Below the pieces are notes generated by a model, which worked only from the letters and a program-made list of their open reading frames with translations, did not search any database and had not been told where the DNA came from. DNA of 60,227 nt, filler included, from Hausera hauseri (taxonomy: Eukaryota): the NCBI GenBank assembly GCA_046269625.1. It is 10 parts of 10 records of this genome, joined end to end, with 100 filler letters (N's around TTAATTAATTAA, not from the genome) between each part and the next. Parts side by side here need not be neighbours in the genome. Positions count along the whole stretch, not along the records: positions 21,587 to 33,368 come from JBJURY010072216.1; 9 more parts are not named here. One strand, 5' to 3'. The position numbers and the translations under genes are program-made. Each line of letters opens with the position of its first letter. Position 1 is the stretch's first letter. Below, one piece after another: positions 17,601-49,688 of this stretch.

Positions 17601-17897
17601 AGATGGTCTTCTATGTCCCCCTTTGTAAATATCAGGACATCGTCGATATAAGCGAGCGCGTAGTCTTGCATTCCCTCTAACACGATGTTCATTAGGGACA
17701 TATAAGTAGCGGGTGAGCCCTTCAACCCGAACGGCATCACGTTCCACGTGTATAGTCCTGTGTGGGTACAGAAAGCGCTCTTCATCTTCGCTTCTGGCGA
17801 CATTGGGCGTTGTGAAGTAAGTCGTGCCGTCTAACATTCCTAGAATATCATCGATTAACGGCATGGGGTAGCTTACGTTAGCCGTAATGGCGTTCAA
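14624..17897 (-). CDS. pol: Gypsy pol: RT - RNase H - integrase plus ~300-aa acidic/charged C-terminal extension (RT disrupted at 5' end)
   Basis: MPFGL, YIDD, YTDAS/EKEA/TDHK/ADLLS, HHCC (HDNLGH..CEVC), SLDL/VTDNG/NERQH DDE triad. Confidence 0.97.
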
Positions 17898-17908
17898 GGC
17901 CCGGTAAT

Positions 17909-19720: not shown

Positions 19721-19803
19721 CTGTACTGGTTTAACACTTTCGTTTCTAGTTCTCCTTGTATTGTTCTGGTGGGCCCTTACTGTTCTCCTGCCCTGCGTGA
19801 GCC

Positions 19804-20971
19804 CTAGTGCTGAGCAGGACTTCCGTTTCCCTGCTGTGTCTGACTTCCAGTATCTCTTCGCTCGTTTGTATCACTTGACCTACAGACTCTGGCAAAGTGT
19901 CCTTCTTTGCCGTGCTTGTAGCATAGTCTACTATTCTCTGTCTTCTGTCTAGGATTGTTTGGTTTTGTTGCTTTGTTTCTGCATTCTCTTGTCATGTGTC
20001 GAACCTTTCCGCATCTATAACACTGCATTCTCTTTTCGACTTCGTGAACTGCCTTTCTGTCTTCGAACCATCTTTATCTATGTTGTTCATGTTCATGTGG
20101 CATTCTTTGCCGTCTGGGACTTCCATTTGTTCTTCACTTCTATCATCGTATTTCTCTCTACCCAGTCTCATGTTAAATCTCTTACTGGTTTTCTTCTTCG
20201 AGGGCTGTTTGTATGGCCGCTTGAATTGTCTTAGGCTTATCTTTCATTAACTTGATTTTAATTATCGTGTTTCACAACCCGTCCGTGAAGATTGATATCA
20301 ATATCTGTCCTATTTCTTCTGTCATTATGGTTTGGCCTGCGTATGCTTCCTCGGCCAAGTTCAACATCCTGTCTCCATAAAGTTGAACTGACTCTTCCTT
20401 TTCCTGTTTGATTTTCCATAGTGCAGCAATAGTATATTGCATGTCACATACTTCGGCGCACCTATTTGCTAATGTCTTTTTAAAATCTTCCCATGTCTCA
20501 TCTGGGTGCGAACTGAACCTTCTTCTGATGAAATCGTTTGCTAGCGCATCTGAAGTCATGTAAGCTAGCTCTTTCTTTTCTTCTTCAGTAGCCTTAACAA
20601 ATATGAGTACTTCTCAATCTGTGAGATCCAGGTCTTGAATGCCTTGGTTTCCTTTCCACTAAATGTTTGAACAAATGTTCTTATGTTCTGGTGTCTACTG
20701 TTCATGTCCACTTTAGTCACCATTGTTTCTATTTTATCCAACGCCTTCCTGACCTTTCTTCTTTTCCCAAACCTGACTTTATAGGATGAAGTTTCCCTTT
20801 CTTGACTGGGGTCTGACCTCCAATCTGTAAATGCTCTACCATTTTTCTCATGTCTTCATATGTTCCTTCATGGCACCATATTCTGCCATCATAGTATCTA
20901 GTTGTTGCGGTATGGCAACAATTCTTTCTGCCACGGCAGGAGGTGGAGATTCCATTTTGTCTTCGATACAA
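19804..20971 (-). pseudogene. gag: Gypsy gag (capsid + two CCHC zinc knuckles), fragmented
   Basis: TWEDFKKTL, MHR-like IKQEKEESVQLYGDRM, IFTDGL; CYRCGKVRHMTREC and CYKHGKEGHFARVC. Confidence 0.9.
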
Positions 20972-21586: not shown

Positions 21587-22512
21587 TAAGGACAAAACCC
21601 GAAGAGACAGTTAAAGTAAAAGTATCGTCGGACAGCATGGACGAGAAAGAACACTAGTTTACTACGCGCTACTCCGTAAGGAACGTGGTACAGTGGCTAA
21701 TGAGTAATGGTTACGCAAACCAACTGAACTATAGACCCTACTTTAGAGGTAGAATATTGGACGAACTGGAGAAATAAATAGACGTCGGAATTATCCCAGG
21801 CGAAACGAATCGAATAATAGTAACGGTCGCCACAGAGGAGACAAAAGAAGAGGCCACAAGGAAAGCTAAAACAGATCAGTGTGTAGGATGAATCATGGGA
21901 GTTCGAGATGCAGCAATGTACTTTGAATATTTGCAAACGGACGAAGAAAAAGAACAATATGATAAGAATTTAGTAGCACCCGACGAGACCGCATCGGTTA
22001 TAGCGAAACAGAAGCGTTCCGTTGGTAGACCGCACAAAACACGAGAAGAAATTGATTATAATGGAGACTTAATTAGAGAATTGAAGCAAATGTCCATATC
22101 AACCTTTAGTGCAGAAAACGAAGAACTGAATGAACTTATGAAAAATTTGATACGCATAGTAAATCATTCCAGTATCTGTGGCGAAATATTAAATGAAAAA
22201 GAGAAATCTATATACAATGCAGCCAAAACAATGAGAGATTTCCTATGTAAATTATCGAGAAGCACCTTAAGTGATGAATCAGTGATCGAAAAGATTATGG
22301 TAGACAACACCATAGAAGAGTTAAGGAAAGTGCTATTGTATTTGGCCATAAAAACAAATCCAACTCGAGAAAATTAATTTAATAAAGCCACTAGTTTAGC
22401 GCGGAAAGCTGGCAGAAAATTACCCCGAGAAGTAAACTGGTATAAGTTATTCGAAAAAGAAGAACATCAGAATAAGGCCCCCTTTAGCAATAGTAATAGT
22501 ATATTCGAAGAC
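21587..22512 (+). pseudogene. C-terminal part of ORF1 (unknown domain preceding the glycoprotein)
   Basis: Homologous to 45239-46050 (GVRDAA.YFEYL, KQKR.VGRP.KT, NTIEELRKVLLY.A.KT); same frame as 22513 ORF; the TAA at 22375 is GAA in copy B. Confidence 0.75.
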
Positions 22513-24609
22513 ATGTTACGAAATTTAACTGGGAATAATTGGGGAAATGAATCAAACTGGCTAATTAATTTCCTAACTGTGATGATGTTAATAAGACACA
22601 TGGGAGCGGTTACAATATGTGACTGTGACAAATTCAGATTTTGCCAAAGATATTCATTGATGGATTTGGAAATGTGCAAGGATGCGAGACCACATAAATT
22701 AGAAACAAAAGAAAAAAGATACTTACTATATAAGCAACGGGCGTTAGTTTCATTGGATGGGATAGAATGCATGTTACGACGATCTCGCAGTATTTTCTAT
22801 TGTGGATTAATACACGGACATTCATCCATAATCAAGCCGACGACCCCACTAATTCCAATGAACTTAGAACGCCAGCATTGTAAGCAGGCTAGAGAGACAG
22901 GCAGGCTGAAGTGGGACGGCATTGAATTAGAAATGCAGCAAGGGAAAATAATCAGAGCATACAAAGTAGCGGCAGGAAGATAAGATATGCATACGGGTCG
23001 CTGTAACGGCGCAGAATACGATACTGGAAAAGGATAAGATTAGACATAGTGGTTGTGGATTTCTACGAAACCGAGATGCGCCCACAAAAAGTTATGTTTT
23101 ATAGCGTTACTAAGCTCTATACGGAAAACCAAAAGTGCCACATCCAAGACTGCACCTGTGTTTTTAGAAGTTCGGTAGTATTTTGGGAATCTCCAGCTAA
23201 GACCGATTGCAATTTTAACAAAATTAATGAACTTAAGTTTAACGAGACGACAGGAAAACGCTACGTAAGTAATACGGATACAAACTCAAAAACACGAGAA
23301 GATGTAGCGGAACAGCCTACACGTACCATATTAAAATCCGATACTCACGGGTTAAATTTTGTGAAGAAAGATGTACACACAAAGTGTGATGTAGTAATGT
23401 ACGCCACCAATTATGAAGCATTCTTTGTAGCTGAAACCGAAATAAATACCAGAACGTTCAAGCTTGAGACTCAAGATATTCGAATTGAAGATTATTTGTA
23501 AAATATAGACGATCATTTCTACTACAAGGGACAGGCCGGAATTGCTGAGTTATACTATAAGATGATAACGAACGACTGCAAACTAGACTTAGAAGTCATG
23601 AGAACCAAACTGGCCTTAATATATGCTAATTCCAAGTTAGCGTCACGAATAATTCCGATGAAAGAAGGCGTTTTTGGACAAGTGACCGGAGAAGTTCTGC
23701 TGACTTCCGAATGCGAGAAGGATGTACCTATTAATGTAGAAGAGAAAAGGTGCATTTAAGAACTTCCAGTGATATATAAGGACATACGGAGATTAGTGAT
23801 GTCGATTACGAGAGTATTACTGGCAAACTCTACCTAACCGACGATTCTGAAAGATTGTAAGACCAGTCTGGGAGAACCAATGTTTAGACGTAGCGAAACC
23901 GATTGGGTAAGCTTACCAAACGGTGGTATAATTACGCCGCCCACCAAGTTAACTGGAACGAACTTAATAAAAGGAATAACCGATAATAAGTTTCAAGATA
24001 CAGCAGCAAAAGGCATTTACCGACCGAAAGAAGTGGAGGCATTTAGACAATTTCTCGCTTTCCCACTCCAGCGCACACATGAACTAAACAGAGCTATGCA
24101 TACAATATTGGAGGATTCACGCTATCAAGCGAAATAGGAATCGTTACTTGGCGTTAACTAATATCAAAAAGTCACTACTGGAATACTGTATAAAATTTGC
24201 GGAAGATTTCTGATATTCGGACAAGCCGCATCAGGATTCCTAGCAATTTACTTCTTAATTCAACTGGTTAAAGCGATAATTCAAGCGGTCATAAATGGAT
24301 ACGAGATCTACACTCTAACAGGATTCTCATGTAAAATTTTAACAGCTGTTATCACACCTTTCGGTAAATTCTTAAAAGCGGATGTGGAACGACATGTTGG
24401 CTATCATAATCGAAAACGTAAAAAGAAACATGTTGTTACAAAAGTAAATTCATATATATATCAAGGCACGAAGAGATAACTCGGATGATGACGAACCTAA
24501 GGGAGGAGAAGCCGTCTTAAAGACAAATAGACACAAAAACTATTCCGTTATAAAACCACCAGTACCAATATTATCGCCAAGTGCACCTACATATGAAGAC
24601 TGTGAGTAA
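22513..24609 (+). pseudogene. env: Chuvirus/jingchuvirus-like glycoprotein (env), copy A, several stops
   Basis: Signal WLINFLTVMMLIRHMGA; CDC..YSLMDLEMC; IEC..FYCG..HSS; AAG..GRCNG; GQVTGEV..C..RCI.ELPV; TRVL; KGIY..FLAFP; TM region FLIFGQAASGFLAIYFLIQLVK..INGYEIYTLTGFS. Pattern recalled from chuviral glycoproteins. Confidence 0.85.
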
Positions 24610-24615
24610 CAATCT

Positions 24616-27600
24616 ATGAGCTCATATCAAACGGATATCTATAGAAAACCGTTCAGCCTGGAAGATCCTTATAAGGGAACAAAACACTACGGAATATTGC
24701 GTAAGGCACACGAAACGAAAAGAACAATTGTCCCATATCGTCTCTCTGCAGTCGACGACCATGGAATAATTTATTCACCCAGAATTCCTAGGCCGAACGA
24801 AATACGATCAACATTCTCAAGAGACCATGAGATGCAGAATTTCAGGGACCCAGAAATACAGCCACCAGTTAGAAGTCACGAAACGGAAAACGTCAATTGT
24901 ACGAACAATAAACTGTACCTAAATGAAGAGCTAAGACAGTTAATCGACCAGCCAGTTGCGACCACTGAAGTTAGAATTAACGGCTATAAGGTCTCGACGA
25001 TTCCACACCCAAAGATAGCGCCAAATTGCTATGATACGGTAATCGAAGGTAAACCCTTCGCAAAAATTCACTTAGAAGATTGGGAAGTTTACGCATTGAT
25101 AGAGACAGGATCCGAGATATCACTGATGAAGCATGACTCAATACCACAGTCCCTACGAAAACAAGTATATCCACTTCCCACAACAGACCCAGGGAGCATC
25201 GGGGCTTTTGGACAGTTGTCGAAAAGAAAATTCCGATGGAAGCCAGAAATGAGCATAATGGGACAATCTTTTCACCACGAATTCTCAGTAATTGCACAAT
25301 TAACGGATGATGTGGTATTAAGGTGCGATTTATTGAGACAACTGCCGAATATAGCAATAGACGTCCATGCAGTGGAAAAGTAATAGAATTCGGCCCGATA
25401 AAAGGCGTCAAAACCACCAAGGATAGGCAAATTGGAGAAGTATGGATCCCAGTAGATGAGAACGTTCCACTTAGACCCGAGGTATTAATATATGCTCAGA
25501 TACGTCAAGATGACGACCAACCAGTGTATTTCGAACCAGAGGAATCGTTAAATTCAAGCATCGCACTCAGTAACGTATTAACAAGAGTATCGACGGGCCG
25601 TGTACCTATTAGGATAGCTAATAATGTACCAACTCCGATTAAACTGTATGCCAATACCACTTTGGGTAATACATATAGAGTATCGTCAATAACTATTGAA
25701 GAAAAACCTTACAAATGTGCCGAATTTCCACCTCGCGTTGATACTAAATTTTCATCAGAAGCATACTGTCGATTTTACGAATTACTTTCTCATTATAGCT
25801 CAGTCATCGCGAGAGACGACGAAGACATTGGCAGAGCCAAAGCCTTGAGACTAACAATTCCAGTTAAGAAAAAGCCTGGCTTCAATGATGAAATAGAATT
25901 AGAGGATCAAAAGATGCCGAAATGGTATCCCCTCCGCACTCATTAAGGCCGGATATAACGAAAGAAGTCGAACGAATGCTAAAGGCCGACATAATCAGAC
26001 CAAACTATAGATCTTGGTATTCACCTATTTCATGGTCAAGAAAAAAGGTACCACAAAGCATCGAATTTTGTATTGATTACCGAGCATTAAACACACTTAT
26101 GATGAAAAATTCTTTCACATTTTCATCAGTAAAAGAAGCCCTAGATAGACTTTCCGGAGCTAAATGGTTTACCACGCTCAATCTGCAATCCGGATATTGG
26201 CAAGTAGAAATAGAAGAAGAAGATCGTTATAAAACTGCGTTTAAAACACACAACGATGCATACGAATTTAATGTCATGCCATTAGGGGATAACTACTGGA
26301 CCAGCCATTTGTACTCGAATGAAGAACAAGATGCTAATGGGTCTGGAACATGCGTTCGCGTATCTGGACGACGTAATGAATGCATCAAAGACAGAAGAAG
26401 AACATTTAAGGGATATTGAGGACACGCTCATGAGAGTGGAGCAAGCCGGATTGAAATTAAACCACAATAAATGTAAATGGGCTCAAAACGCTGTATCTTA
26501 TCTCGGACATATAGTTGGAGAAGGAGGATCGAAACCTGATAAATCTTTGTTAAGTAAGATATCAGATTCTATGGAGCCCCAGAATCAAAAAGAGTTGCGA
26601 CACTGGTTAGGTTTATGTGGATATTACGCCACTTAATTACCGGATAATTCAAAAAGAAATGCGTCTTTGTATCGTTTACTTAAAAAGGGAATTAAATGGA
26701 AATGGACGAACGTAGAACAAAAAGCTTTCGACGAAATGAAGAAAATCTTAACTAGCGAACCCGTTTTAAGATACCCTGATTTTAACCTTCTGTTTATAAT
26801 TAAAACGGGTGCTAGTGAAGAGTCATTGGATATGATTTAGCACAAAAACGTGAGGATAAAGAACTAGAACACCCAATCGCCTATGGAGGACGATCACTAA
26901 AGAAGGCTGAAAAGAATTATTCGGTCACGGAATTAGAAACGTTAGCTTTAAAAGACAGAAGATTATAATTGTTACGAATCACAAAGTAGTTACAACTTAA
27001 AAAGGTAGAGCAAATAACCCAACGTGTAAGTTCAACCGATGGATCGAAGAGATCTCACGGTATAACATCGAATTTCAATACAAACCCGGAAGCAAACATG
27101 TCGATGCCGATGCACTATAAAGGCTTAAAACTAAAACGGGCGCAATCACTGTGATGAGAAAGTCTCGGCTCGAAGAACTAGTGGACAGACAACGAGCTCT
27201 AACATTGGATAAAACAATAAAAATTTCTGCTGAACAAAAGAAGGACAACGTTATACAACAAATCATTGAGTTTGTCGAAAATGAAACAATACCAAAGGGC
27301 CACCAATTGCGGAAACATGTACGCAGACATGGTCATAAATACTGCATAACGGGCAACACAAGCCATGAAAATGTACTGTATTATGAGCGGAAAGGCCGGA
27401 AGTTGGTAGTCATACCAAAAGGATTACGCACAGGAATACTAATGGCCGAACATGATTCATACTTAGCCTGACACATGTCATGGAAGAAGACATTAGAAAG
27501 AATATTAAATAAATATTACTGGTCGAACGTATACATCGATGTGAAGAATTGGGTAAGTGCTTGCGAAGTATACGCAACCAAACAAAAAAAGTGAAAAACT

Positions 27601-28560
27601 ACGTTCTCGAACATAAACCAATAAGCGTGCCGGACAGACCGATGCAAGCGATGTCCATGGATATTGTAGGACCGTTACCTATAACTCATAAGAATAATAA
27701 ATACATTCTGACATGTATAGATCGCTTATCTCATTTCGTCGAGCTTGTGTCATTAGTGGACCAAAAAGCTGAGATATTGGCTAAGGCCGTAGTAAGGAAA
27801 ATTATCTGCTGATTCGGACCTCCCGAACAAATTCTGACAGACCGAGGAAGAAACATTACGTGTGAACTATTAAAAAAATTACTAAAATATTTGAAATTGA
27901 AAGATTAACCACAACAGCTTACCACCCGCAATGTAACGGAATGGTCGAACGAACGAATGCAACAGTTATATGGATCCTATCAACAGTATTTGCGAAAGGC
28001 CAGAAGGATTGGGATGAATTTTTCGAAGACACGTAATTTGCCATAAACACTACATCACACACTGCAACAGGATTTACCCCATTTTTATGATGTATGGCAG
28101 AGGCGGTACTACGCACAGACTTAGGAATGATACCATATACAGTAAAAGCGGACGATTCAGAGCAAAATTTTGTTGAAGTATTACAGACGAAGCTACAAAA
28201 GTGTTTGGAAATAGCCAAAGAATTGTCCAAAAAATATCAAGAACAATTTAAAAGGCAAGACAATAAGAAGGCTAAACCACATGATCTAGAGCAAGGAAAT
28301 TGGGTTTATGTACATTACCCAGTCGCAAAGAAAGGCACATCTCTGAAATTCACTCGAACAGGCAGAGAACCTTACGAAGTTATCAGAACCACACCAACTA
28401 CAGTCTATATTAATAAAAATGGCAAAGAGGAGGTCATATCAATACAAAGAGTAGTTAAAACGGAAATAAGACCGAATAAACGCTATAACCTGCACCCAAA
28501 CAAAGAAAATCCAAGTCAAACCAAGAAGGAAAAGAAAACGTCATCGATAGTAACCAGACC
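24616..28560 (+). pseudogene. pol: Gypsy-type pol (PR-RT-RH-IN), copy A, multiple stops/frameshifts
   Basis: ALIETGSEISL, FCIDYRALN, WFTTLNLQSGYWQV, YLDD, WLGLCGYY, HPIAY..YSVTELE, MSMDIVGPLP, ILTDRG, YHPQCNGMVERTN. Confidence 0.95.
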
Positions 28561-29931
28561 GATATATTATGCACAAATAATTCTTGCACTATCGCTAATC
28601 GCTTCATATGTGCTAAAGGCAAAGACACAATGGACAATGGATTTAGTAGAAGTTATCCACGGAGTTATGAAATATTTCCCAATTGAAAAAGAATGACATG
28701 CGGAAAGACGCAAAGATATACAGAATTTACAGTCGCTCAGAGTCTACGATATGAATTGGATCAAGCCTTGCGCCTGGTTCAAGGCAAGTGAATCTGTTAA
28801 GAACCACGCAAAATTTCAAATAATATTTGTGGATCAAACTAGTTCTGCGATGAAGACATGTGATTTTCCGTATGGCGCCTATCAGAGATGTTGCGATTTA
28901 GATTTCGGGCGAACCTATAAATACAAATTTCAAATGTTCTATTATAATCTACCCGGAGCCCAGGCCTATATAATTACCGAATTTGAAATAAGAATGCCTC
29001 AACGCAACGACACAAACCAAGCCAGAACGGACGATATAGTCCGAGATGCCTATCCATTTAAGAGAATCCTAGATTATAACATTATTGGTATCTCTAAAGA
29101 TTTTAAAAACCAATGTATTCGAATTAAGACCAAAATAGAATTGCTGAGAGGCAGACAAATTTCCATCCGATTCATAGCGATACGGAAATCAAACACTCCT
29201 CTGAAATACTGTTATATTGCGCGAGGACAGCAAAATTCGTGCTGCAGAATACCCTTCAAACATGAATACCAATTGCAATTCGATCTGTACAATACTTACT
29301 CAAACGAACCGAGTACCTATCTAAGAGGATACCGTCCAAAGGTCGGAATATGAAAGATTTCCTTTCCAACAACTACGAGAAAACCGTCTACCATTCCAAA
29401 TGCGACTCGTACCACTTATATTCTCCTTTCGAGAAAAATGTCCGAGAGAGCTGAAAAACATGCTTGTTAGAATTTTGGTACGGCATAACAGAATTGTATT
29501 TTATGTTGAGGAAACAGTGGATTACGAAATTAAAATCGAATGTCGCACCTTTATATACCAACCAAATTGTAATCTTAAGGAGGAATAGTCGGGAAATCGA
29601 ATGGAAATCCCTACGATCACAAAATGATATAATGCAAATGACTGAAGATGGTAAAAGACAGAAAACTCTTACAGTACTAAACCTTAACAATGAAGTTCAC
29701 GTAATGCAATATAAAGATACTAGCACCCAACATGCAATTACTACGGAACTTTCTATTGAATCTAATAACTTACCGATAATATCTATATTCAGTTTGTCTA
29801 TTTTCTTTCTTATCATATTAACAGCGACGATTTTCTTACTTTCCAAAAAACGTAATATTCGACGTCAAAATCAACAGAGAGGTAAACGGGTAAAAGGGAA
29901 CCAAGGCGGACTTTATGATAGCATAATCTGA
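28561..29931 (+). pseudogene. Putative type I membrane protein in frame with integrase C-terminus
   Basis: Hydrophobic IILALSLIASYVL, Cys-containing region (28751-29353, same frame after one TGA), then after a frameshift IISIFSLSIFFLIILTATIFLL followed by basic SKKRNIRR. Confidence 0.55.
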
Positions 29932-30033
29932 CAATTACAGATTGGGTTACTCTATCATCAGACGGAGAAAATGTTTTTGTTTCAAAACGATGATCTATCT
30001 TAGGATTGACCTTTATTTTTTTAGCAGAGTAAG

Positions 30034-31758
30034 TATGGCCAAAAAAGCTAGGAATCCAGCACACAGTCCTAGATACGACATCGATGACTTCCTACAGCAG
30101 AATGTGGATGTTCTTAAGCCTCCTTCCAAAAGCTTATATCGTCAAATCAGAGAAAGCCCGAAAAACCAAACTTATGTAGAAATCGATCGAGAGAGCAAAA
30201 TACCAAATGGATTGAAATGTGGCTTAGAGGAAAATCGATTAATCCGATTATATGCAATGCGAAGCTCAAGGGATGCACGAGCATACCTATTGATAGATAT
30301 GATCCCATATGAACCGACACATCAGTAAATGTACATATATGTCGCTGATGGAGAAATACGGCACAGGATCGTAGGACAATCCTGGAGTACTCAAAGTGGT
30401 CAACAATGGAAAATTAGCACATATGAGCTATGTTGCTCTAGCCTCATGGATTACGCTTTGGAGTTCAGAATCGCAGAGCTTCCAACCAAACTTATGTTTA
30501 AATTAACCCCACGAACAGAGGTGATGAGGCCACTACCACCTATACTGTGTATACAAAAGCCCTCAGAGGATGAGATAGAACGAAACGGAGAATCCTTCAG
30601 ACTACTTACAGATGGCAGGAATACTCGAATTCAAGCTGTAAACTATGGAGAAAAGGATGATGGATGGTACACCTCAATCGAAGTCTCTATCCGAAATATA
30701 AATGGAGAAGAGATTATAAACAAAATAATTGCACCTAGAACTAAGGTAAAGGATACATTTCCCGACGTTTCTGGAATTACAAAATTACGACTCGAGGAGG
30801 GTAAAGATATCCAAGAAATTCAAGAAGACATAAGCCATATCTTATATGGATTCATTGTAACCGGATTTAGAGTACACGAGATACTAGAAAGGTTAGGAAT
30901 TCGACAGGAATATATAGCCGGAATTCGTGAATTAAGTCGCAATCCGACAGTCGTAAGTCGAACGGAAAGCATTCTAATGAGAAAAAGAGGATGTCTACTT
31001 CCTCCAGCGTCACGAGAATTCCAATTTAAGATGATATTAGAAGCTATGAATGGTGAACGCTTCCATATCCCTAAACTAATGTCAGCGAGTCAGAGGACGA
31101 AACTCATAAGAGACGTGTATGGTTCTCTACGACGGGAACATGTGTGGAAACCCGGAAACCCTATACAGAATGTGATATCTGATAGTAACCCAAAAATTTT
31201 GATACAGAAATTTCGAAAAGGAATTAGTGAATACCCCATACATAGACAGATTGAACCTCAGGGGCATAATAGCCTCCAAATAACCGTTCAAAACAGCTCG
31301 GTCAAGTTGTCCAAACAGAAGGGATCAAACGGGGATAATCAAGAAACCCTATCGACCAGCCGGAATCGAACCGAATGCGGATCAACCTCTCAAAAAGCAA
31401 CAGAAAGAGTGGAAATCATGGAGTCGAACCTCAGAGAAGACAAAAGACAAAATTCTCCTTCTTCGAAAATAACAGTAGAAAGAAAAAGAAGACCAGTAAC
31501 AACTCTGCCGAACAAATGAAACCGATTGCTAGCAGCCGCACACCGGTTGATAAAGAAGAGACGGAAAATTCCAAGGAGAGACCGAAAATACAAGAAAACG
31601 GAAATTTTAACGAACCGAGAACGCAACCCCTCAGTTATGAACCGCCCAGAACAGAACTTAATGTTCTTCGAAGAAATTGGGAAGAACCGATCCCTATTAT
31701 TGTGGTCAAATTTGGTCAAGTTAAGGAATACACCAGAATGCTCCTAAATGCAAAATAA
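30034..31758 (+). pseudogene. Accessory ORF containing a REX4/ISG20-like DEDDh exonuclease fold (~30626-31120), catalytic residues absent
   Basis: EVSIRNINGEEIINKIIAPRTKVKDTFPDVSGITKLRLEEGKDIQEIQEDISHILYGFIVTGF parallels REX4 RVSIVN..G....D..V.P...V.D..T.VSGI....L..G.....VQ.EV..IL.G.I.VGH; the 29942 and 30329 ORFs are one frame split by a single stop. Confidence 0.7.
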
Positions 31759-31922
31759 AAGAGGCCGTATTTTATGTCTCCACCGTTCCAAGAAGAATCG
31801 TAAGCGGAAACGGATACGCCCGAGAAGACACGACCATTGGCAGATATTTAGCCCCGATATTTCAATCAAAAAACGGAACTAAACGACTAACCCTCCCAGT
31901 AGATACCCAAGTCCGGATTCAG

Positions 31923-32450
31923 TTGAAGAGCCAATATAAGAAGACAGGAATACCAGATCTAGACCAACAGGAAACCGTTAAATGGACATTGATAACCGTA
32001 TTGGATGACTCCAGGAAAAGCTCTATAGACCATAAACAAAACAATTATATAGATGAAAATGTTGTAGATATAGATGGAGGTGAAAAGGATGAATGTCCCA
32101 TTTGTGACGCAAACCTATACCAAGGATTTGTGGTGTTAGATAATAAGGATTGCACCCATAAATACTGTCGGTACTGCTTAGAAACGTGGACCCTGAAAAA
32201 TGGGAAGACGACCTGCCCAGTATGTAGGGCTGAAGCTACGAGGTTGCGTTACTTCTCCAGTAGAGAGAGTAAGAAAATAGTGGAGATATTCCTTCAAAAA
32301 CCTACTTCAGCATACCGCTTCGAATTGCGATCCCCGCGAGATAAGTCTGATTCGGAAGCGGACTTACGCGGACGAATGAATCGATTTCGCGGCACCTCTT
32401 CTGACGCAATGGGTACATCTGAGAGTGCCGTTCAGGTAGAAATGTTGTAA
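31923..32450 (+). CDS. C3HC4 RING finger accessory ORF
   Basis: CPIC-x14-CTHKYCRYC-x12-CPVC. Confidence 0.9.
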   Translation: MKSQYKKTGIPDLDQQETVKWTLITVLDDSRKSSIDHKQNNYIDENVVDIDGGEKDECPICDANLYQGFVVLDNKDCTHKYCRYCLETWTLKNGKTTCPVCRAEATRLRYFSSRESKKIVEIFLQKPTSAYRFELRSPRDKSDSEADLRGRMNRFRGTSSDAMGTSESAVQVEML

Positions 32451-32490
32451 AAGCAATATAATAATTGTACAAATGTAAATCGAAAGTGAA

Positions 32491-33137
32491 AGTAGTATAA
32501 CCGAAAGCAAAAGTAGATATGCATAATGTAAATTTAGCAAGAAATTTAATTATTTAATTGAAATACAGGAAAATTGTTTATTCATTAGCCAGTGCATGAA
32601 ATTACTGAATTCGCTAAACATTCTTGTGAAATTATTATTTATCATTGATGGCCGAATTAATTGGGTGAAAATTGAAAAAAACAAAAAAATATTGATGTGA
32701 AAATTCCTACCAGTTTGATATATAAATGCCTAGATTGTGGCTAGTGGAGAGAGAGAGTAAATTCAGAGCGATCCAAAATTATCGATTGAAGTAAACGTTA
32801 GTGGATTGATTCAGTCGTGAACATTATTCTTTTGACGTGCTATCCTTACGGTTGTAACATCTGGTATTATTTTTAGTTTGTTGAAAATAAATTTGTATTT
32901 AAAATCCTTAATAGTTTTCGTCGCTTTTTACGAGGAACTAGCACTACACTAAGTGTCAAATTTATACTAAAATAAATAGTTAAGTCGAGATTCTTTCAAA
33001 CTTTCAAGCAAATTCACGCAGTACACGCATACTAAAATCAGTACAAACCTTCTAACGAGAACGTTAGAACTTATCTGCTCCCGAAATATCGAATTATATT
33101 CATTGTTATAGTTGGGTGTTGGATAGGGCCCACCTCC
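32491..33137 (+). repeat. Probable 3' LTR of copy A (start tentative)
   Basis: TATATAAA 32719-32726, AATAAA 32886-32891; 33101-33137 matches (30/37) the sequence just upstream of the PBS in copy B (49552-49588, minus). Confidence 0.7.
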
Positions 33138-33138
33138 T

Positions 33139-33273
33139 GTTGAATATCGAAGCGTGATAAAGTTCCTAGTTTTACGCCATGAAAAGAGTGAGCAAATCCT
33201 GAAGTTTCTACAAGAGACTTATGCAAATGAATTTCCCTCACGCACCACAATGTATGATTGGATCAGTCTGTAA
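33139..33273 (+). mobile_element. Mariner transposase N-terminal HTH fragment
   Basis: VEYRSVIKFLVLRHEKSEQILKFLQETYANEFPSRTTMYDW fits the mariner EYR.VIKFL...I...L...YG...PS..TV..W pattern. Confidence 0.75.
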
Positions 33274-36200
33274 GTAGACCGCGTATCTACAATTCCAACC
33301 TCAACGTCATTTGATGATTCTAAGATTGAATTATGCATTAGAAATTTATTATAAAAGTTGGTATAACANNNNNNNNNNNNNNNNNNNNNNNNNNNNNNNN
33401 NNNNNNNNNNNNTTAATTAATTAANNNNNNNNNNNNNNNNNNNNNNNNNNNNNNNNNNNNNNNNNNNNTAATCTTAGGGACGTCAAATCGCTTTTAAGAA
33501 GCGATGGAAAACTATGGAATAATTTATACTGAAGAAAATTTACTATACAACAATTACCAGTTAAGGAATTACAGTACGTTTCGTATCACAACGTCTCGAA
33601 TGTCTTTCTAACGTTCACAGAAGTAAGATTAATTTTCAATTTGATCCAACAGTTAAATTTCTATCGTAAACTTGTAACTCGTAGCTCTCCTTTTTTACGT
33701 CTGTTCCATCCTTTATATAGTTTTTCAATCACGCAATTTGCTCATTGCTATTGAATTTTTATCGATTTCGTCTCTTTATTGGCATTGTTTTCTTCTTTTT
33801 ATATTCAATTTCCTTTTTATGGCACACAATAAATTGTAAAATCTGATTATTTTATGTAATTATCCATTCCATATTAATTACTATTCGTGCAAATTATGAT
33901 TAAATTCTGAAGGAACTGATTATTTACAAACTATTCATTGATGCAGATGATTGATGGAGTTTACGTACAACTTTGTTCTACTAATCTCGTAGTCTACAAC
34001 AAAAATATTTATTGAAATGTACACAGTTGATATAAAGTGACGTCTCCCAGACGTCTTTTTTATTAGGTCAAAATAGATAACAACGTCTCAAGGACATCCT
34101 TTGTTTTCAGTATCAAAACAGACAAATACGTGTGACAATGTTCGATATTATTTATTGCATTTTCAACAAAATACTGTAATATTAGTATATTACATTGTTG
34201 TCTTTATATCGACAAACATCTATGACAGTTATTAGGTAATTATATTTGTATGTGAAAGGGTTAATAAAGTCAAGGGGCACTTTTCTATATCTTAAGACTA
34301 ACAAGGAAATTGTCATTGTAGTGATCAACTTCCAACCATCAGAATTGCGTATCTGAATTCTGGATATGCGTTTTATCAATAATGAAGCCGGGAAGTTGTC
34401 AGAAATATTTCACGGTTTCTGCGTTTGACAACCAAAAAGTAATACAAATTTTGCTTAATTTTTTATATATATAGTTAAAATATGATATGCACAGATATCA
34501 TTTTATAATATTGTTGGCTTCTTTATCCAATTATTTCAATTCTTTCTAAGTTTAAATTTGAAACTGATTGTGCAATAGAATCTACTAGGAATGGTTATTC
34601 AAATATGGAAAGAGATTATTTTATGTATTAATGAGCCTACTTGCGCTTCGGCTATAGACGCTTTATTCAACTGGAAATAATTTATAATATTTACGAAGAA
34701 GAGAAGAACTCAATTCTAATATTTAGATATTTTCATTCTGCAAAAAATATTTTCTGATAAAAATATTTTCTGTCTTCTGGGTCCAAAAATTTTAAATATT
34801 CATAAAAGAAGTTGCTTTTCCAACTGCAAACGAAAAGTTTTTCTAAACTTTGTCAAGAACAATTTAAACTCCAGTGAATTAGAGAATTATATTTAAATGA
34901 AAAGACAATACTGCTGAATGGTAAGATAAACAAAACAATAAAAATACAACAAATAAATAATTGACAGTTAGTAAAAATTACCAAATTCACTTATGGAAAT
35001 TAAAACGCCCGAATAGGACTAATCGCTTTATTGCTTTGAAAATTGAGGGATCCGAAAGAAACGGATTTGTTAAATTGAAGGCAAACTCAAACAAGCATTA
35101 ATCTTTTCAAAATACTTTAAGGGCGCAGTGGCATAACAACTGGCGGTTTAGTTGAGTGCACTATGGTAAATTCATCACAGATTTATATACCTGCTTTGAA
35201 TCGTGGTGGTTTTTAATGTTACCTTTTTGGAAACTTTTCGTTGGTGTGACTATCCTTATCGTCTTATTTTTATTATAATAAGGTTTATTTTACACTGTTC
35301 GTTTTTGGTAACTCATAAATTATTGCTTTTGTGTACTTTTCTAATTTTTAACTGTTTGGGTTGTGGGTTGCCATCATAGGTGATAGATTGAAAAGATTAT
35401 GACTAATTGTTTCTCTTTTAAATGTAGTAGGTTACTATTGTGTTGATTGATCACTCAAGAGCTTCAAAAATATTGTCCGAATCATTATAAAATTCATAAA
35501 TTGTTAAATTTATTCACATACAAGTTTTGTTCTAAACCATCAAGTTTAATCATAGAAGAACAGCAAATTCACTTAACTACCAGAATTTATAACCGTAACT
35601 ACGCATATTACAGTGAAGCCGCTGTTGTATAAAATACTCTAATTCTACTTTGGATTTGTCATAAAAACATCTTTTTATCTAAACTACGCACATTATCTGA
35701 AAAGATTATTTTACTAAATTCATCCATGAATCTTAAAATGTCCTTAATCTTAAAACACTTAAAAATCTGAATTGGTTCTGAAACCCTAACAATATTATAT
35801 TTTAGAAATTGGTACAATGAAAAGAATTTTTGATACTAATTGGTTTCACGCTAAATAGAAAATCAGGCATCAAATAAAAATTCTCAAATCAGTTAAATTA
35901 TAATAAAAAGTAACATCGCCAAAATTACACCGAATTTACAGAAACTTATTTTGACACATGCAATAGCCATATTGTCCATGGCAGTTTTTCCAATAATTTG
36001 TACATAATTAAATTTCCCACAATCTGTATGTATTAAAACTTCCCACACTAAATTCGGAAACATCCCATTTATTTCAATTGAGTAGTGAGCAACGACAAAT
36101 CTAAATATAAATTCTTTTTGTTTCTTTAAGAATAAACAAGTGCCGTGAACAGTGGTATGGTCATTTTGCCCGACTATTGTTATTGTTGCGTTTTTAAAAT

Positions 36201-40145: not shown

Positions 40146-40195
40146 GTATGGTTTCTCAATTATTTTGCTAGATGAAATGTTGCTTGCAAAGAATA

Positions 40196-42072: not shown

Positions 42073-43083
42073 TGAAGTGGGCGCATTATTCGCCACTCTG
42101 ATTGGTACGCGGCCTGTTGATACTCTTGTCAAAACATTGCTGAGTACAATGTTTGAATTAAGCGATTCTTTCGGTTCGAAATATACTGCCTCGTCGTCAT
42201 CTTGACGTATTTTGGGCACATATGAGTACTTCAGTTCTGAATGGTATGTTTTCATCTACTGGAATCCACACTTCTCCGAACTTTCTATTTTTGGTGGTTT
42301 TAACCCCTTTTATTGGACCAAGTTTTATCAACTTGCCTTCATTGAAATCGATTGCTATATTGGGTAGTTGTCTCAGTAAGTCACATGCTAACACTACATC
42401 ATCCGTTAATTGATCCATTGCTGAGAATTCATGATGGAAAGAATGTCCTATTATGTGAATTTCCGGTTTCCAACGGAATTTACGTTTCGATGATTGTCCG
42501 AAGACTCCGACGCTTCCTAAATCCGTTGTGGGAGGCGGATACAATTTTTTCCGTAAGAATTGTGGTATTGAATCATATTTTATCAGTGATGTTTCAGATC
42601 CTGTGTGTATTAGCGCATATACTTCCCAGTCTTCCAATTGAATTTTTGCAAATGGCTTTCTTCAATTATCGTACCGTAATAATTTGGTGCTATCGGAGGG
42701 TGTTGGATCGCGGACACTTTGCAACAGTTAATGGTAACCTCGGTAGTTCTACCTGGCTAGTCGATTAACTGTCTCAGTTTTCCCATTAGGTAAAATTCAT
42801 TATTCGCACCATTCGTGTTTTCTATTACTTGGTTTCTAACTGGCGGATGAACATCTTGGTTCTGGAGATTGTGTGTCTGACGGCTTGTGGCAAATATTGA
42901 CTGAGTTTCGTTTGGTCTAGGTACTCTAGGTGAATAGATTATACCGTGATCGTCGACCGCTGAGCGACAATGTGGGATAGACGGTTTTCCTACCTTACGC
43001 AGCACTCCAGAGTGCTTTGTTCCTTCGTAACGATCCTCTAGACTGAACGGCTTCCGATAAATTTCTGTCTGATACAAACTCAT
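42073..43083 (-). pseudogene. pol N-terminus/protease, copy B
   Basis: MSLYQTEIYRKPFSLED, VYALIHTGSETSL, DVVLACDLL; homolog of 24616-25640. Confidence 0.9.
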
Positions 43084-43086
43084 AGA

Positions 43087-45200
43087 TTACTTTTTACAAT
43101 CTTTATATACAGGTGCCGTCGGCGTCAGTATTGGTAATGGTAATTTCACAACAGATTAATTTCTATGTCTGTTCGACTTAGGTATAGCGTCTCCTCCATT
43201 AGGCTCGCCATTGTCTGAGTTATTTCTTCGTATCTTATTAATTATAAAATTTCGCTTGAATAGGTACTTTCTTTTACCGATTTTGATTTTGATAGCTTAC
43301 GTGCGTTCTACCTCAGTTTTCCATCTACTTTCGTCGTATGACTTTAAAAATTTGCCGAAGGGCGTGACAATAGCCGTCAAAATTTTGCACGAAAATCCTG
43401 TCAAGGTGAATATCTCGTATCCATTTATGATTGCTTGAATTATAGCTTTTATCAGTTGAATTAACAAGTATATCATTAGAAATCCTGACGCAGCTTGTCC
43501 AAATATCAGGAATCTTCCCCAGATTTTATATAATATTTCCGTACTTATTTTTTTATAATAGCCAGCACCAAGTAATTATTCCCATTTCGCTTGGTAGCGC
43601 GAATCCTCTAATATTATATGCATTGTTCAATTCAGTTCGTGCGTACGTTGACGAAAAAAGGCGAGAAATTGTCTGAACGCCTCTACTTCTTTTGGTCGGT
43701 AACTATCCTTCGAGGCCGTATCTAGAAATTTATCATCGGTTATTCCTTTTATTAAGTTTGTCCCTGTCGATTTGGTAGGCGGCGCGATTATGCCACCGTT
43801 TGGCAAACTTACCCCGTCAGTTTCGCTACGTCTAAACATTGGTTTGTCCAGGCTGGTCTTGCAATTTCTCAAGATTGTTGGTTGGGTAGAATTTGCCAAC
43901 AATACTCGGGTAATCGGCGATACTAATCTTGGTACCTCCTGGTACATCACGGGAAGTTCTTGTATACACCTTTTCTCCTCCACATTAATAGGTACGTCTT
44001 TCTTATCACACTAATATGTCAGTAAGACCTCTCCGGTTACCCGTGAAAAACACTTTCCTTTATTGGAATTATTGGTGATGCCTACTCGGGATTGACATAT
44101 ATTACGGCCAGCGTAGTTCTCATGACTTCCAAATCCAACTTGCAGTCATATGTTATCATTTTGTGATATAGCTCGGCTATTCCTGCTTGTCCCTTATAGT
44201 AGAAATAGTCGTGTCTGTTTTTCAGGTAATCTTCGATCCCAATATCCTGAGTCTCGAGCTTGAACGTCCTGGCGTTTATTTCCGTTTTAACTACGAAAAA
44301 TGCTTCATAGTTGGTGGCGCACATTATAACATCACATCTTGTGAGTACATCTTTCTTCAACAACTTCAGTCTGTGGGTATCAGAGATCAGTATCGTAGGT
44401 ATTGACTGTTCAGCTACATCTTCTCGTGTTTAGAGTTAGTTTCTGTGCTACTTATGTACCGTTTCCCCATTGTCTCATTAAATTTAAGCTCCTTAATTCT
44501 AATAAAGTTTCAATCGGCCTTAGTCGGAGGTTCCCAAATTAATACGGAACTTCGGAATGGGCATGTGCCATCCTGAATGTGGCACTTATGGTTCTCGGTG
44601 TACAGTTTAGTAACCTTATGGAACATCACCTTCTGTATGCGTATTTCAGTTTTATAAAAGTCTACTACTACGATGTTCGACTCTAATCATTTTCATGTAT
44701 CGTATTCTGCACCATAACAATGCGCGGTGCGCATGTTTAGTCTTCTTGCTGGTACTTTATGTACTCTGATTATTTTCCCTCGCTGAATTTCTAGTTTTAT
44801 GCCATCCCATTTTATTCTCGCCGTCTCTCTAGCTTGCTTACAATGCTAAAGTTCTAAATTCATCGGAATTGGTGGGGTCATTGGCTTTATTATTTATGAG
44901 TGTCCATGTACCAGTTCACAATGGAAGATGTTGCGAAATCGTCGCAACTTACATTCTACTCTATCCTATGTAATTAGTTCGCGTTGTTGACATAGTACGT
45001 AACTTTTCTCTTTTTTTCTAATTTGTGTGGTCTCGCGTCTTCGCACATTTCTATGTCCATTAATGAATGTTTTTGGCCAAGTCTAAATTTGCCACAATCA
45101 TGTACTGTGAATGCACCCATTTGTCTTATTAACATTATCACGATCAAAAAGTTGATTAGCCAATTTGACTCACTTCCTCTGCGATTTCCGTTTACGTTTC
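43087..45200 (-). pseudogene. env: Chuvirus-like glycoprotein, copy B
   Basis: WLINFLIVIMLIRQMGAFTVHDC, ATNYEAFFV, RCIQELPV, SPITRVLL; ends ILTPTAPVYKDCKK*. Confidence 0.85.
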
Positions 45201-48200
45201 GCTGCAGATCTTCGAATGTATTGTTACCTAAGAAGAATCTACTCTGACATACTTCTTCTTCCTCGAATAACTTCCCGAGGTAGGTTCCTGGCAGCCTTTC
45301 TTGCCAAGCTAGCATCCTTGTTGAATTCATTTTCTGGGTTTGTGTTAGTTTTGACGGCCTGATATAACAACACTTTTCTTAATTCTTCTATGGTATTTTT
45401 CGCCATAATTATCTTAATCACCACTTTATCGCCATTACATGGCCTTTGCGACCTTCGCTTTCTCATCCAATATATCACCGCCGAGACTAGAGTGGTTTAC
45501 TATTTGTATCAAATTTTTCATAAGTTCGTTCAGTTCCTCATTATCCGTACTGAAGCTTGGTATAGATATTTGCCTCAACTCTTTGATTAGGTCTCCATTA
45601 TAGTCGATTTCTTCTCATGTCTTCCGTGGTCTACCAACAGGACGCTTCTGTTTTGTTACTGCAGGTACACTGCCGTTAATGGGTATCAAATTTTTATCGC
45701 ATTGCTCCTTATCTTCATCTTTCTTCAGGTACTCGAAATATACTGCTGCATCTCGGACTCCTATTACTCGACCTACCCGCTGCTCTGCTTTAACCTTCCT
45801 TATAGCCTTCTCCTTTGTTTCGTCGATATTAATGGTTACCACTACCCGATTTGCTTTACCTGGAATAATACCGACTTCTATTAATAGTTCCTATTCATTT
45901 AGTATCCTTCCTCTAAAATAAAGTCTATAGATCGGCTCATGGGCGTATCCATTGTTCTTTATCCACAATAATACATCCCTTACAAGGGAGCGCCTCGTGA
46001 ACTCTTGTTCCTTCTCGTCCATTCAGTCAAAAGCTATCTTTACTGGGACCATCCCTCTGCCTTTGCCTTTAAGATTTTATTACATTCTTTAAGTAAAAGC
46101 TTAGGTACCGTACTAAAAATCGTACCTTTGTTAGCTAATTTAGTTAGAGTGGAGACCAACTGTATTAATTGGATTTTAGTGAGGTTTACTTCAATGAACT
46201 GAATTAAATCTTTCTCGGTTTGTACTGGATCCAAAAGAATTCCCACGTTAAATCTTTGGTCCCAACAATATACCTCCATTTCACCCAATCGTATGGGAGT
46301 TTTCGGGTTTCCAGCAATTATTGCGTCTAAATATGCCTCCCAATCTGGTTCGTTTTTATCGTTCGGCAGTTGGTAGTCCGTTGACGGTGTATCGGTTGGT
46401 CCACTCGCACCTGCAATCTTTATGGTTTTTCTGAGTTTCTGTAGCTTCTGTTGCAATTGGACCATTTTCGTCGTTCGGAAACAGTTCCCATTAGCAGAAA
46501 ATTGGTGTAACAGTGTTAACATCGAACATAATTCTTCAGCCGAAATCAGTCCTACTCTTGAGAGCTTGTTAGTTCTGAAGTGACAATTCTTTTCCACCTT
46601 TGCACGAACTGCGACTTGTCAGCCCTTTCTGCTTCTGTAAGGGCGTATTTGTTTTTATAGACTTCGAGTTCTCTAGCTAGTTCGTCTAATCTCATCGCTC
46701 TTTTTTGGTCTTAATGCAAGTCACTTCGACCTGCTGTATCTGCTACAACAAATGTCTTAATTTTGCATCACTGACTTCTGCCATTTTCGCCATCAATAGC
46801 AATAATTCATACATCGCGTTAAGACTGTTTGAATCTGGATCTATTGCTTCTAATCATTTTTTACAAATTTTATCTCTTCGAAGCTAAGGTGGTGATCATT
46901 CTTTATTTTAATTAGTTCACTATGATGCCTTTGATCCGTTCCATCCCTCCATTCCTGTGGACGATGTAAGAACTTCACCGCTTCTTCAACGATTGACCTA
47001 TATTTGGGACAAAAGTCCAAAGTTTTAAGAAGTCGAATCGAGATTTTCTTGATAGGCTTGGCGGGAAAATGTCGGATTCCTTTCAGGCGGATATCTCTCA
47101 ATCTCGGATAGAAGTCCTAAGTCGCATTCCGTTTCCGCGTAAAGTTTGTTTCTTCAATCATCTTATACAGATCATCTAGTATCATCATTTCTTGTTTCTT
47201 TTCCAAAAAGTCCAATTGACGTAGTGCCTCAAATTGGGTTCGGATGTCGATTTCTGCTCTCACCGTATCTAGATTTCGGCCGTCTTCTTTCAGTTGCTTT
47301 TTCACTGTATGTGCGCTCTCCGGAAATTCCTTTTTTCGATTGGCTACTAATTAATCAACCTTGTTATTACTTCGGATCATTCTTTCAACTGATTCGTGAT
47401 TTCTGGTTTTGCCAGTATTGCTTTGTCTAACATTCTGTCAGCGTCTTCTAGTTCATTATTTGGACCTTTAGTAATATCGATGACCCGATGGGCGTAGTCG
47501 AATTCCTCTTTATATTCGTCGAATTCAAAAATACAAGCCATAATTATTTTTTGTATTTCGTCATAGTTTGTGAACATAATTCTATTCCTTAGACCGTATA
47601 TTTGCGACCTTTTTTCGGTTTTAATCTTGATCCGATTTTCTAGACTCGTATATTGTTATTATGACGTACAAGCGACTTTTTTCATTACCAATAAGGGTGG
47701 AATATCTAATGAGTTTATGCGCAACGTCTCTAGGTTACTTCCATCTCGTTCCTTGACCGGTTTTCTTCTAAGTCGTTCGACTATTGCAAATGTAATTTCG
47801 TTCATGACACGTTCCAAATTACGTACTACTCTAATTTCGGATTGGCTTCTAATGTAGTTAATAGTGACTGAGCTTAGTTGATTCTATCTTCGACGCTTTG
47901 GGTCGTTTTATCCCACGCTTCTGGGATTCTCATCTCACTTTTTATCCAGGCTGCCAGTTGGTGTTTCCATTTGACTAGTGTTACTTTTGTCACTTCCTCC
48001 GGTGGATCTAAGTTTACATCTTCGCTTAGTTTCTCTTCACTATATAATTTCATCTTTTTATATAACCTCTCTACAAACTGTTGTTCCTTGCCAGAAATAT
48101 CCACTTGATCACTTATTGTTTTGAGTTTCTCGAGATTCACTTGCACGACCTCTGTGTTGAGACAATTTATTTTCATCCTTTTTAATTCGTCGGCATTTTT

Positions 48201-49252
48201 CCACGAGTGTCTGATTTTCCACTATTTAGGATCAAGTTTCTCCTCCTGTCCTGTTTCCTCTTCGCAAGTAGGTAAAGGACATATATCATTTATTTCATAT
48301 ACAGATTTCGTTAGCTCGTCCATCTCGCCAGGCGTAACAACTTTAATTTCTGGAGTGTCTGAAGCGAATTCTATGTCGTTTTCCAATGCGATTTCAGTCT
48401 CTCTCCTTGTCTCTGATTTCTCCTTAATTATTGGGAATCTCAAAAGATCCTTACGTTTCCGTCTCAATGATGGGTTATGTCCTCTATTCTTGGTAATTAT
48501 GAGTATTAGGGGTTCCAAAAATTCTTTTTCTTCGTCGATCTCTACCTTTTTGCTTACCTTTTTCACCATGTGTTCTGGTTCCACATCTGAATCTACTTCA
48601 TCCAAGGTCTCGAGTTTTCCTGTTTCGTCTAACTCTTTGCTTGTCGTAGGAATATTCTTTTTTCGTGACACATCCGTAAGGCTTGGTGGAGCGATGGAGT
48701 GTTCATATTCCGTTTCCGGTTCACGCAAGCCATGGTAAACTTCCAATAATCGTAATTTGTGTTCATACTCGTTTCTGGCCACTAAAACTTTAGGGTCTTT
48801 AACATTGGGTTAGGCCTTTAAAAACGTTGCAAGTCTTGTATCTAAATGATCATACCTGTGCATTTACAGAAACCATAAATGGCTTCTAAGTTTTCGTTTT
48901 AAATTACATTAGTTTTGGTAGGTTCCACAAACGAGACACTTCGCGGGTTTGGACAGGATCTCGCTGTGTGTTGGGCGCGAGTCCGGCGCATTCTGCGCGT
49001 AACTTTTAGGTTCTCATAAATTCGTTGAGTCTGTCCTGGTCTCCGTCATATGCTGGTAAATTCAGAGTCAAATGTAAAAATGTCCAACTTTTGCGCTACT
49101 GCTTGATTCTCAACCATGTTTTCAACGTTTATAAGATTTTGCTTAATTGCTTTACAAGTTCTAATGCTTTTATCAGGAACTTTAACTTCAATAGGCTGTC
49201 CAATAGATTCAGCGTTAGTTAAATTCGTTTCGGATAACGTACGTCTGATCAA
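45201..49252 (-). pseudogene. Long fragmented ORF1 (gag-like, helical), copy B
   Basis: Nine same-strand ORF fragments tile the interval between PBS and env; weak capsid-like segment (..T*DFYPRLRDIR). Gag identity inferred mainly from position. Confidence 0.6.
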
Positions 49253-49520
49253 TGTCTTATCTTGTCTATATACTTTATTACGTGTTTCGCGAAAATTTAT
49301 ATTCTGCTTACCGTTTAGAATAAAATTTAAACTATCGACAGACCCATGTCTATCAATATTCGTTCTTGATTCAATAGTATGTCGTTATAATACTCAAGGT
49401 TTTCTTTATATCCCAAATTTTAGTCTCACAAAAATCTACAATCAATTATTTGATGTGTTAGCGCTAATCGCTAATGTGTCGTTACTTTTCACTAAAAGTC
49501 AAGTCTAGCAAGTGCAAACT

Positions 49521-49538
49521 GTCCTGCTAGGGTTGCCA
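49521..49538 (-). promoter_or_regulatory. Primer binding site TGGCAACCCTAGCAGGAC
   Basis: Begins TGG, complementary to a tRNA-like 3' end (GTCCTGCTAGGGTTGCCA), directly after LTR-matching sequence; tRNA identity (Arg-like?) uncertain. Confidence 0.75.
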
Positions 49539-49688
49539 AATTTTAGTAGTTGAAGGTAAGTCCTATTCAACACCCAACTACAACAATANNNNNNNNNNNN
49601 NNNNNNNNNNNNNNNNNNNNNNNNNNNNNNNNTTAATTAATTAANNNNNNNNNNNNNNNNNNNNNNNNNNNNNNNNNNNNNNNNNNNN

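Follow-up and report, generated by a model that had tools for sequence, protein, structure and literature searches.

Where does the envelope protein of a retroelement begin and end when its coding sequence shares a reading frame with the Gag side? The question is raised by a decayed element in a 60,227-nucleotide stretch of Hausera hauseri DNA (assembly GCA_046269625.1; hereafter the window), in which an env-like open reading frame (ORF) lies behind another ORF of the same frame. The initial annotation had taken Env for the C-terminal part of a Gag-side polyprotein with an internal signal peptide. We assign a probability of roughly 70% to a related reading, that this locus preserves, in broken form, the gag-env junction of a Burro-like Ty3/gypsy element whose Gag-Env-Pol polyprotein would be cut by the host signal peptidase. 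Within that reading the fusion of gag to env is highly probable.

Two decayed copies in the window

The window consists of separate contigs strung together with N-spacers, so neighbouring elements are not necessarily linked; between 4635 and 55438 there are eight spacers, each with a 12-base A/T linker flanked on both sides by 44 N. Copy A (21587..33368, plus strand), delimited by the N-spacers at its contig bounds and by a path of low-stop frames, starts at a contig edge (21587) and is a decayed Ty3/gypsy element running from the gag-env spacer to a probable 3' LTR. Copy B (42073..49588, minus strand), recognised by alignment to A, extends from the gag region through env to protease and is heavily broken. 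The copies share about 73% nucleotide identity over 4053 columns, and A belongs to a high-copy family, with 21030 contigs of run X1 matching it at a likeness of at least 80%.

The gag end is present in B only, where a capsid N-terminal profile gives a weak match (49059-48979, iE 0.077). No intact CCHC knuckle was noted in the translations of B, tblastn with the relatives' Gag-side parts returned nothing significant against A or B, and a profile of the helical domain that precedes the ubiquitin-like domain reached an iE of 2-3 only, in B. An extra low-stop block lies in B between gag and the ubiquitin-like domain (47130-46850, minus strand), for which no counterpart was found in the relatives. 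Both copies in the window are dead elements; each is broken at the gag-env junction, and no open copy of the A/B family was seen.

The window also holds a second, better preserved Ty3/gypsy element (14624-20502, minus strand) with protease (PR), reverse transcriptase (RT), RNase H (RH), integrase (IN) and a long charged tail, a capsid match at 20502-20203, and no env in the two ORFs scanned. Fragments at 1928-7947 (minus strand) resemble by eye a protein-primed DNA polymerase B of the Polinton/Maverick type, long exons at 37804-40203 (plus strand) look by eye like the host gene UBR4, and a 570-nt inverted repeat lies at 40187-40738. A further RING-finger ORF of retroelement-like strand composition stands on a separate contig (55443-56294, plus strand).

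One frame across the stop at 22375

Stops in the frame of 21895 fall at 21889, 22375 and 22981, so ORFs 21895-22377 and 22513-22983 lie in one frame with a single stop between them, as had been annotated. The TAA concerned (22375..22377, plus strand) is confined to copy A, and the earlier statement that B reads a sense codon there also holds, B differing at 45328 (minus strand) by one base. These facts were right, but the account omitted three further in-frame stops upstream in A (21655, 21775 and 21889), two frame breaks of B's own before the signal (opposite A 22204-22281 and 22430-22492) and the start of A at a contig edge. Given A's upstream stops, 21895 is not a start; with those stops in A and the breaks in B, neither copy is open across the junction.

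The record of the frame is carried by the differences between the copies, which concentrate at the third positions of codons in a single frame all the way from 21603 to 22980, the interval 22378-22429 included. Counted at codon positions 1/2/3, they number 18/13/48 over 21895-22203, 6/5/14 directly before the stop at 22375, 3/2/13 directly after it (p 7e-4), 5/7/15 from the stop to the Met at 22513 (p 0.014) and 6/7/19 over the signal. The substitution pattern shows a single frame under codon-level constraint across the stop. No stop is common to both copies along 1276 aligned codons, 12 being found only in A and 19 only in B. Because it is sense in B, because no stops are shared, and because the third-position bias continues across it, the stop at 22375 behaves as the other decay stops do, and it too looks like decay. 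From B's gag region to the transmembrane (TM) helix of Env we count about 1970 codons, in agreement with the roughly 2000 aa first estimated for the ORF.

Domains between gag and env

The gag-to-env span here is about 1300 codons. The segment formerly listed as unknown now contains a ubiquitin-like domain, identified by profile, and probably a Bcl-2-like domain, identified through the model of a relative and a weak alignment in A. The ubiquitin-like domain of A (21604..21837, plus strand) is broken by two stops, 21655 and 21775, and a profile built from five relatives matches A at 21742-21837 (iE 2.9e-3) and B at 45923-45822 (iE 3.9e-5). The corresponding segment of the relative L001 matches Pfam ubiquitin at E 5e-5, under the curated cut-off, and the A piece 21658-21774 has no match in Pfam. 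Farther along, a GRP motif is apparent in the sequence (22021..22038, plus strand), which we take to be AT-hook-like; GRP-like motifs also precede Env in P0001, P0003 and P0015.

A probable, degenerate Bcl-2-like core follows at 22249..22452 (plus strand), spanning the stop at 22375. It was placed by alignment to the cores of four relatives (z 3.1, 13/2000 shuffles, in a window chosen by eye); its spacing matches that of the relatives, and a Bcl-2-like profile search of copy A gave a weak match (E 0.024). In P0006 and L001, Pfam Bcl-2 gives a weak match on the helical domain that precedes the signal. For the L001 domain, modelled from a 4-sequence alignment (pLDDT 81), the best 22 matches in a wide structural search (VIA) are all Bcl-2 family members, with Z of 9.0-11.6, values which for a helical model, being below about 13, are not conclusive by themselves; the best rmsd to the family is 3.1 over 134 residues, and the Foldseek matches listed are again Bcl-2 family (best E 7e-3). 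By these comparisons the spacer of copy A would comprise a ubiquitin-like domain and, probably, a Bcl-2-like domain. A stop inside a Bcl-2-like core is a poor site for a natural protein end.

The internal signal-like segment and Env

The signal-peptide-like segment occupies 22558..22608 in A (plus strand), with cleavage predicted after 22608 from its hydrophobic core and -1 register, and 45168-45109 in B (minus strand). The internal signal-like segment that had been proposed is thus recovered, its hydrophobic stretch (22558-22596) having an 11-residue Kyte-Doolittle peak of 2.45 in A and 3.16 in B. Signals were called from hydropathy and simple -1/-3 counts. Among the 25 relatives with the start motif (3 without it and 5 other entries were excluded), the -1 residue of the predicted cleavage register is small in 23, the -3 residue is small or aliphatic in 24, and a hydrophobic core lies ahead of the site in 23. 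Copy A has a small -1 residue in the relatives' register and an atypical -3. Cleavage by signal peptidase at the internal signal is plausible on these features.

Behind it lies the Env ectodomain (22609..24230, plus strand), assigned to the gB/chuvirus-type class III fusogens by PF24664 and by tblastn of relatives, and interrupted by stops and a frame break near 23040. PF24664, the Monjiviricetes fusion family, matches 4/5 pieces scanned (best E 2.9e-15; span 22378-24476) and exceeds its cut-off on two pieces of A; Pfam Glycoprotein_B gives a weak match on the relative P0028. A profile from alignment A3 returned proteases and no Env relative among solved structures. The Env TM helix, a predicted stop-transfer segment by hydropathy, is at 24231..24293 (plus strand). 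Since the PF24664 match at 22378-24476 is followed by protease, RT and integrase, env precedes pol in this Ty3/gypsy-type element.

Relatives of the Env start

A HMMER search with A's Env start among 1.84 billion representatives found 24 relatives at 25-35% identity. Eleven are 471-3243 aa long, and all 11 have 141-889 residues before the predicted mature Env: five carry a CCHC knuckle upstream of Env, eight a protease motif downstream (the other three end within or just behind Env), and four RT, RH and IN. The other 13 are fragments of 126-318 aa; the 10 of these that have the start motif begin 13-42 residues before the mature Env and could be read as stand-alone env. A cluster look-up and further search added P0025, P0027 and P0028, which have Env and protease in one chain. 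Among the 816 candidates of a word-indexed search, none was a longer relative of A's Env start, scans of viral and prokaryote-genome contigs gave no relative, and a metagenome contig scan gave at least two loci.

Raw DNA of the relative L002 contains a 2693-codon frame with no stop, encoding capsid, knuckle, Env, PR, RT, RH and IN. As read from protein chains and this frame, intact relatives have gag, env and pol in one ORF. Locus L001 is the one DNA-level counter-example to an open junction, its Gag-side frame of 999 codons ending at a stop, beyond which the Env signal continues that frame and no Met intervenes. The L001 stop (3058-3060) falls precisely where the Bcl-2-like domain gives way to the Env signal, in a frame otherwise open over 1400 codons. 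P0010, which resembles L001 by eye, is open at that place.

Some relatives have features of their own. Two or more tandem aspartic-protease-like domains follow Env in P0003, P0008, P0010, P0025 and P0027, and P0025 (4844 aa) has an ankyrin-like stretch by eye. P0007 (HBK71150.1) is an Env-Pol polyprotein with a zinc knuckle that is labelled a hypothetical protein of a Flavobacteriaceae MAG and is probably mis-binned animal DNA, and P0029 (2213 aa) has a gB-type Env behind a Gag and protease that look Bel/Pao-like by eye, with no intervening RT.

Pol and the env-pol junction

Pol (25048..28453, plus strand) comprises protease (25048-25371), a PR-RT insert (25437-25865), RT (25934-26816), an RNase H region and integrase (27615-28453), identified by Pfam RVP, RVT_1 and rve and by tblastn of P0002, P0007 and P0025, with several frame breaks. 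Its order PR-RT-RH-IN is that of Ty3/gypsy (Metaviridae). Membership in Bel/Pao (Belpaoviridae) was rejected, since Env precedes PR and the RT motif is YLDD. The PR-RT insert is conserved, is about 145 aa long and has no match in Pfam, to dUTPase or otherwise. Both copies (25081 region; 42630 region) have a degenerate active-site motif in protease, as befits dead elements.

Does the chain stop behind Env? Intact relatives encode Gag, signal, Env, TM, protease, RT, RNase H and integrase in one frame, and Env is therefore likely to be internal in a Gag-Env-Pol chain; the earlier placing of Env at the C-terminus gives way here, protease following in the same chain in the eight long relatives counted above. 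The initial annotation's own version, in which a single Gag-Env ORF ends after the Env tail and Pol is translated by frameshift or from a start of its own, we consider unlikely, though several features of the Env tail and pre-protease linker (24294..25047, plus strand, delimited by frame comparison) speak for it. Env and pol are in different frames in A, the change falling between 24392 and 24477; both copies read a stop at 24477 in the env register; 5/8 differences over 24393-24428 are at env-frame third positions; one-base gaps occur near 24514-24524 in sister contigs, among the matches listed; and the stops at 24607 (A) and 43089 (B) adjoin and are followed by a Met common to both copies. 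Against this, B keeps to one frame, scattered stops aside, between the Env TM and the pre-protease region; an adjacent pair of stops is unremarkable, about 0.36 being expected from 12 + 19 stops scattered over 1276 codons; and every relative that reaches well past Env runs on into protease as one chain. A shared ORF end at 24607/43089 was rejected, these being adjacent codons and not one codon, and the ORF end that had been put at 43087 is accordingly a B-only stop beside an A-only stop, with none in common. Up to 24428, with only 8 differences to count, third positions favour A's env frame, and from 24477 onward they favour the pol frame. They do not tell which copy kept the ancestral state; the relatives' single chains favour continuity, and we judge that the env frame probably ran on into pol.

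How Env is reached

Less likely still, and in our view improbable, is a separate Env, translated from a spliced RNA or initiated at Met 22513, with the common frame incidental. That Met, present in A 32 codons ahead of the predicted cleavage, would make an ordinary 32-residue signal peptide and so counts against a single chain; pyrimidine-AG sites at 22486 and 22492 in A and 45229 in B, and the short relatives that start at the signal, point the same way. The Met is missing from B, however, which also has none opposite 21895, and the only Mets near the signal common to both copies, 22585 and 22600, lie inside or behind the hydrophobic core. A conserved env Met was rejected on this ground, and the earlier statement that none precedes the signal stands. 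The acceptor-like sites of A are out of phase with that of B, and such sites recur throughout the element at a rate of 2-2.6 per kb; a conserved splice acceptor was likewise rejected, and no stop, start or acceptor common to A and B separates the upstream ORF from env. Moreover, the sequence from the stop to the Met carries the coding constraint given above, and L002, P0001, P0002, P0010, P0015 and P0027 have no Met 18-50 residues before the mature Env.

A programmed read-through stop that parts the Gag side from Env and reduces Env output is very improbable: in A and L001 alike a stop does interrupt the frame somewhere between the ubiquitin-like domain and the signal, but its position differs, lying within the Bcl-2-like core of A and beyond that core in L001. 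Moreover, B has a sense codon opposite the stop of A, no stop separates the Bcl-2-like domain from the signal in P0001, P0006 or P0010, and A has 12 such stops along the aligned path.

Behind integrase

The Gag-Env-Pol chain that we favour would not end with integrase. Copy A has a second signal-like segment at 28562..28618 (plus strand, hydropathy peak 2.58) and a second TM helix at 29770..29847 (plus strand, peak 2.94). A hydrophobic segment occurs at the matching place in P0002, P0007, P0015, P0025 and L002, and the pair is found in the first four of these; L002 has A's hydrophobic series, to which it adds one segment directly ahead of the signal and, within protease, a marginal one. In copy A and five relatives the predicted segments suggest that a signal-TM-signal-TM topology is a trait of the lineage. 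The relatives' post-integrase lumenal segments have no detectable homology to A and belong to no Pfam family; an FN3-like look of the lumenal part is by eye only. In the literature covered, which lay outside subscription papers, we found no description of a signal-peptidase topology in these elements, nor, in searches aimed at other topics, of the post-integrase signal/TM pair.

About 2.5 kb more low-stop coding sequence follows (29927-32450), with a RING finger at its end (32088..32228, plus strand; zf-RING_2 E 3.9e-8). The copy closes with a purine tract (32746-32757) and a probable 3' LTR remnant (32746..33368 in all, plus strand), called from a match to B and from depth: A 33102-33135 agrees with B 49587-49554 at 85% over 34 nt (E 1e-6), the contigs ending within elements, and the bin of highest summed depth in run X1 contigs lies here. 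The domain order established for the element is ubiquitin-like, signal, gB-type Env, TM, PR, RT, RH, IN, second signal, second TM and RING.

A proposed membrane-threaded polyprotein

How might such a chain be made? Gag and the ubiquitin-like and Bcl-2-like domains would be synthesised in the cytosol; the segment at 22558-22608 would insert into the endoplasmic reticulum (ER) and be cleaved on the lumenal side, and the left-over signal helix would stay as a tail anchor of the Bcl-2-like domain. The Env TM would then stop transfer and bring the chain back to the cytosol, where PR-RT-RH-IN would be made and set free by the element's own protease, and the post-integrase signal and TM would yield a second lumenal protein. 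Alternating signal and stop-transfer segments would in this way leave Gag and Pol in the cytosol and place Env and the second protein in the lumen. Gag, Env and Pol would be produced in equal amounts, without splicing, and assembly would start at the membrane, unlike in retroviruses and insect gypsy, where control is typically by splicing and frameshifting. The post-integrase signal/TM protein and the Bcl-2-like domain, which would be tail-anchored, offer concrete testable handles.

More speculatively, the four-pass membrane polyprotein (signal, TM, signal, TM) could build the whole particle. In that picture the Env signal peptide would also anchor a viral Bcl-2 by its tail, Pol would emerge at the ER still joined to the tail of Env, and the fast-evolving second surface protein behind integrase would be the receptor-binding partner missing from a gB-type fusogen on its own. 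We hold this extension to be tentative and rather doubtful, yet we regard the four-segment topology, with its second surface protein, as the most rewarding line to follow. If true, it would represent a flavivirus-like expression strategy in a retroelement, and it would supply a candidate answer to cell entry by gB-carrying errantiviruses, which the errantivirus study describes as unexplained (PMC13524379).

Comparison with known systems

Several systems share parts of this organisation. The polyproteins of alphaviruses and flaviviruses, in which internal signals alternate with stop-transfer segments and signal peptidase does the processing, are our working analogy; these viruses are unrelated, have class II fusogens and show no homology to the element here. 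Nematode NERVs (Sacco et al. 2022) reportedly have a continuous gag-env-pro-pol ORF, being metaviruses with a captured RNA-virus glycoprotein, and are said to lack a ubiquitin-like or Bcl-2-like spacer. Atlas virus (Belpaoviridae) is described as encoding a single Gag-Pol-Env polyprotein, and it belongs to the Bel/Pao lineage with a class II phlebovirus-like Env at the C-terminus and YVDN in RT (PMC9094657), whereas the element here has a class III Env in the middle and YLDD in RT.

Errantiviruses of GAG-ENV-POL order with an HSV/gB-type Env are described from Platyhelminthes, Bryozoa and Nematoda by Chary & Hayashi 2026 (PMC13524379), and share with our element both the gene order, env upstream of pol, and the class III gB/mononegavirus-like Env. 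A's Env appears by eye, with no alignment, closer to the Schmidtea rows than to the bryozoan rows of supplement 2 of that paper, which describes three ORFs and whose main text does not use 'polyprotein', 'single ORF' or 'fused'.

The closest comparison is planarian Burro, set by published description rather than by direct sequence comparison, and it takes the place of the alphavirus likeness first put forward. Burro and GYPSM1 are giant gypsy-like LTR elements of planarians for which the Burro section of Arkhipova & Yushenova 2019 gives Gag-Ubi2/SUMO-like-BCL2-Env-PR in frame, an Env related to mononegavirus fusion proteins, an internal region of up to 25 kb with an ORF of about 5000 aa, a dUTPase-like insert between PR and RT, a RING motif and MATH/BIR/ankyrin extras, and the occurrence of decayed copies (PMC6431247). 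MATH, BIR and ankyrin were not found in the pieces scanned here, and that section mentions neither a signal-peptidase topology nor a post-integrase signal/TM pair. An in-frame gag-env-pol layout has already been published, so this core claim is not new. The in-frame env of Burro is supported here on the gag side; on the pol side it is in frame in B and out of frame in A, and L002 has it. The ubiquitin/SUMO-like domain is present here, and the BCL2-like domain directly before Env is found in L001, with a weak match in copy A. In the order of Gag side, ubiquitin-like domain, probable Bcl-2-like domain, Env and PR, in its RING finger and in its decay, the element corresponds to Burro as that section describes it (PMC6431247).
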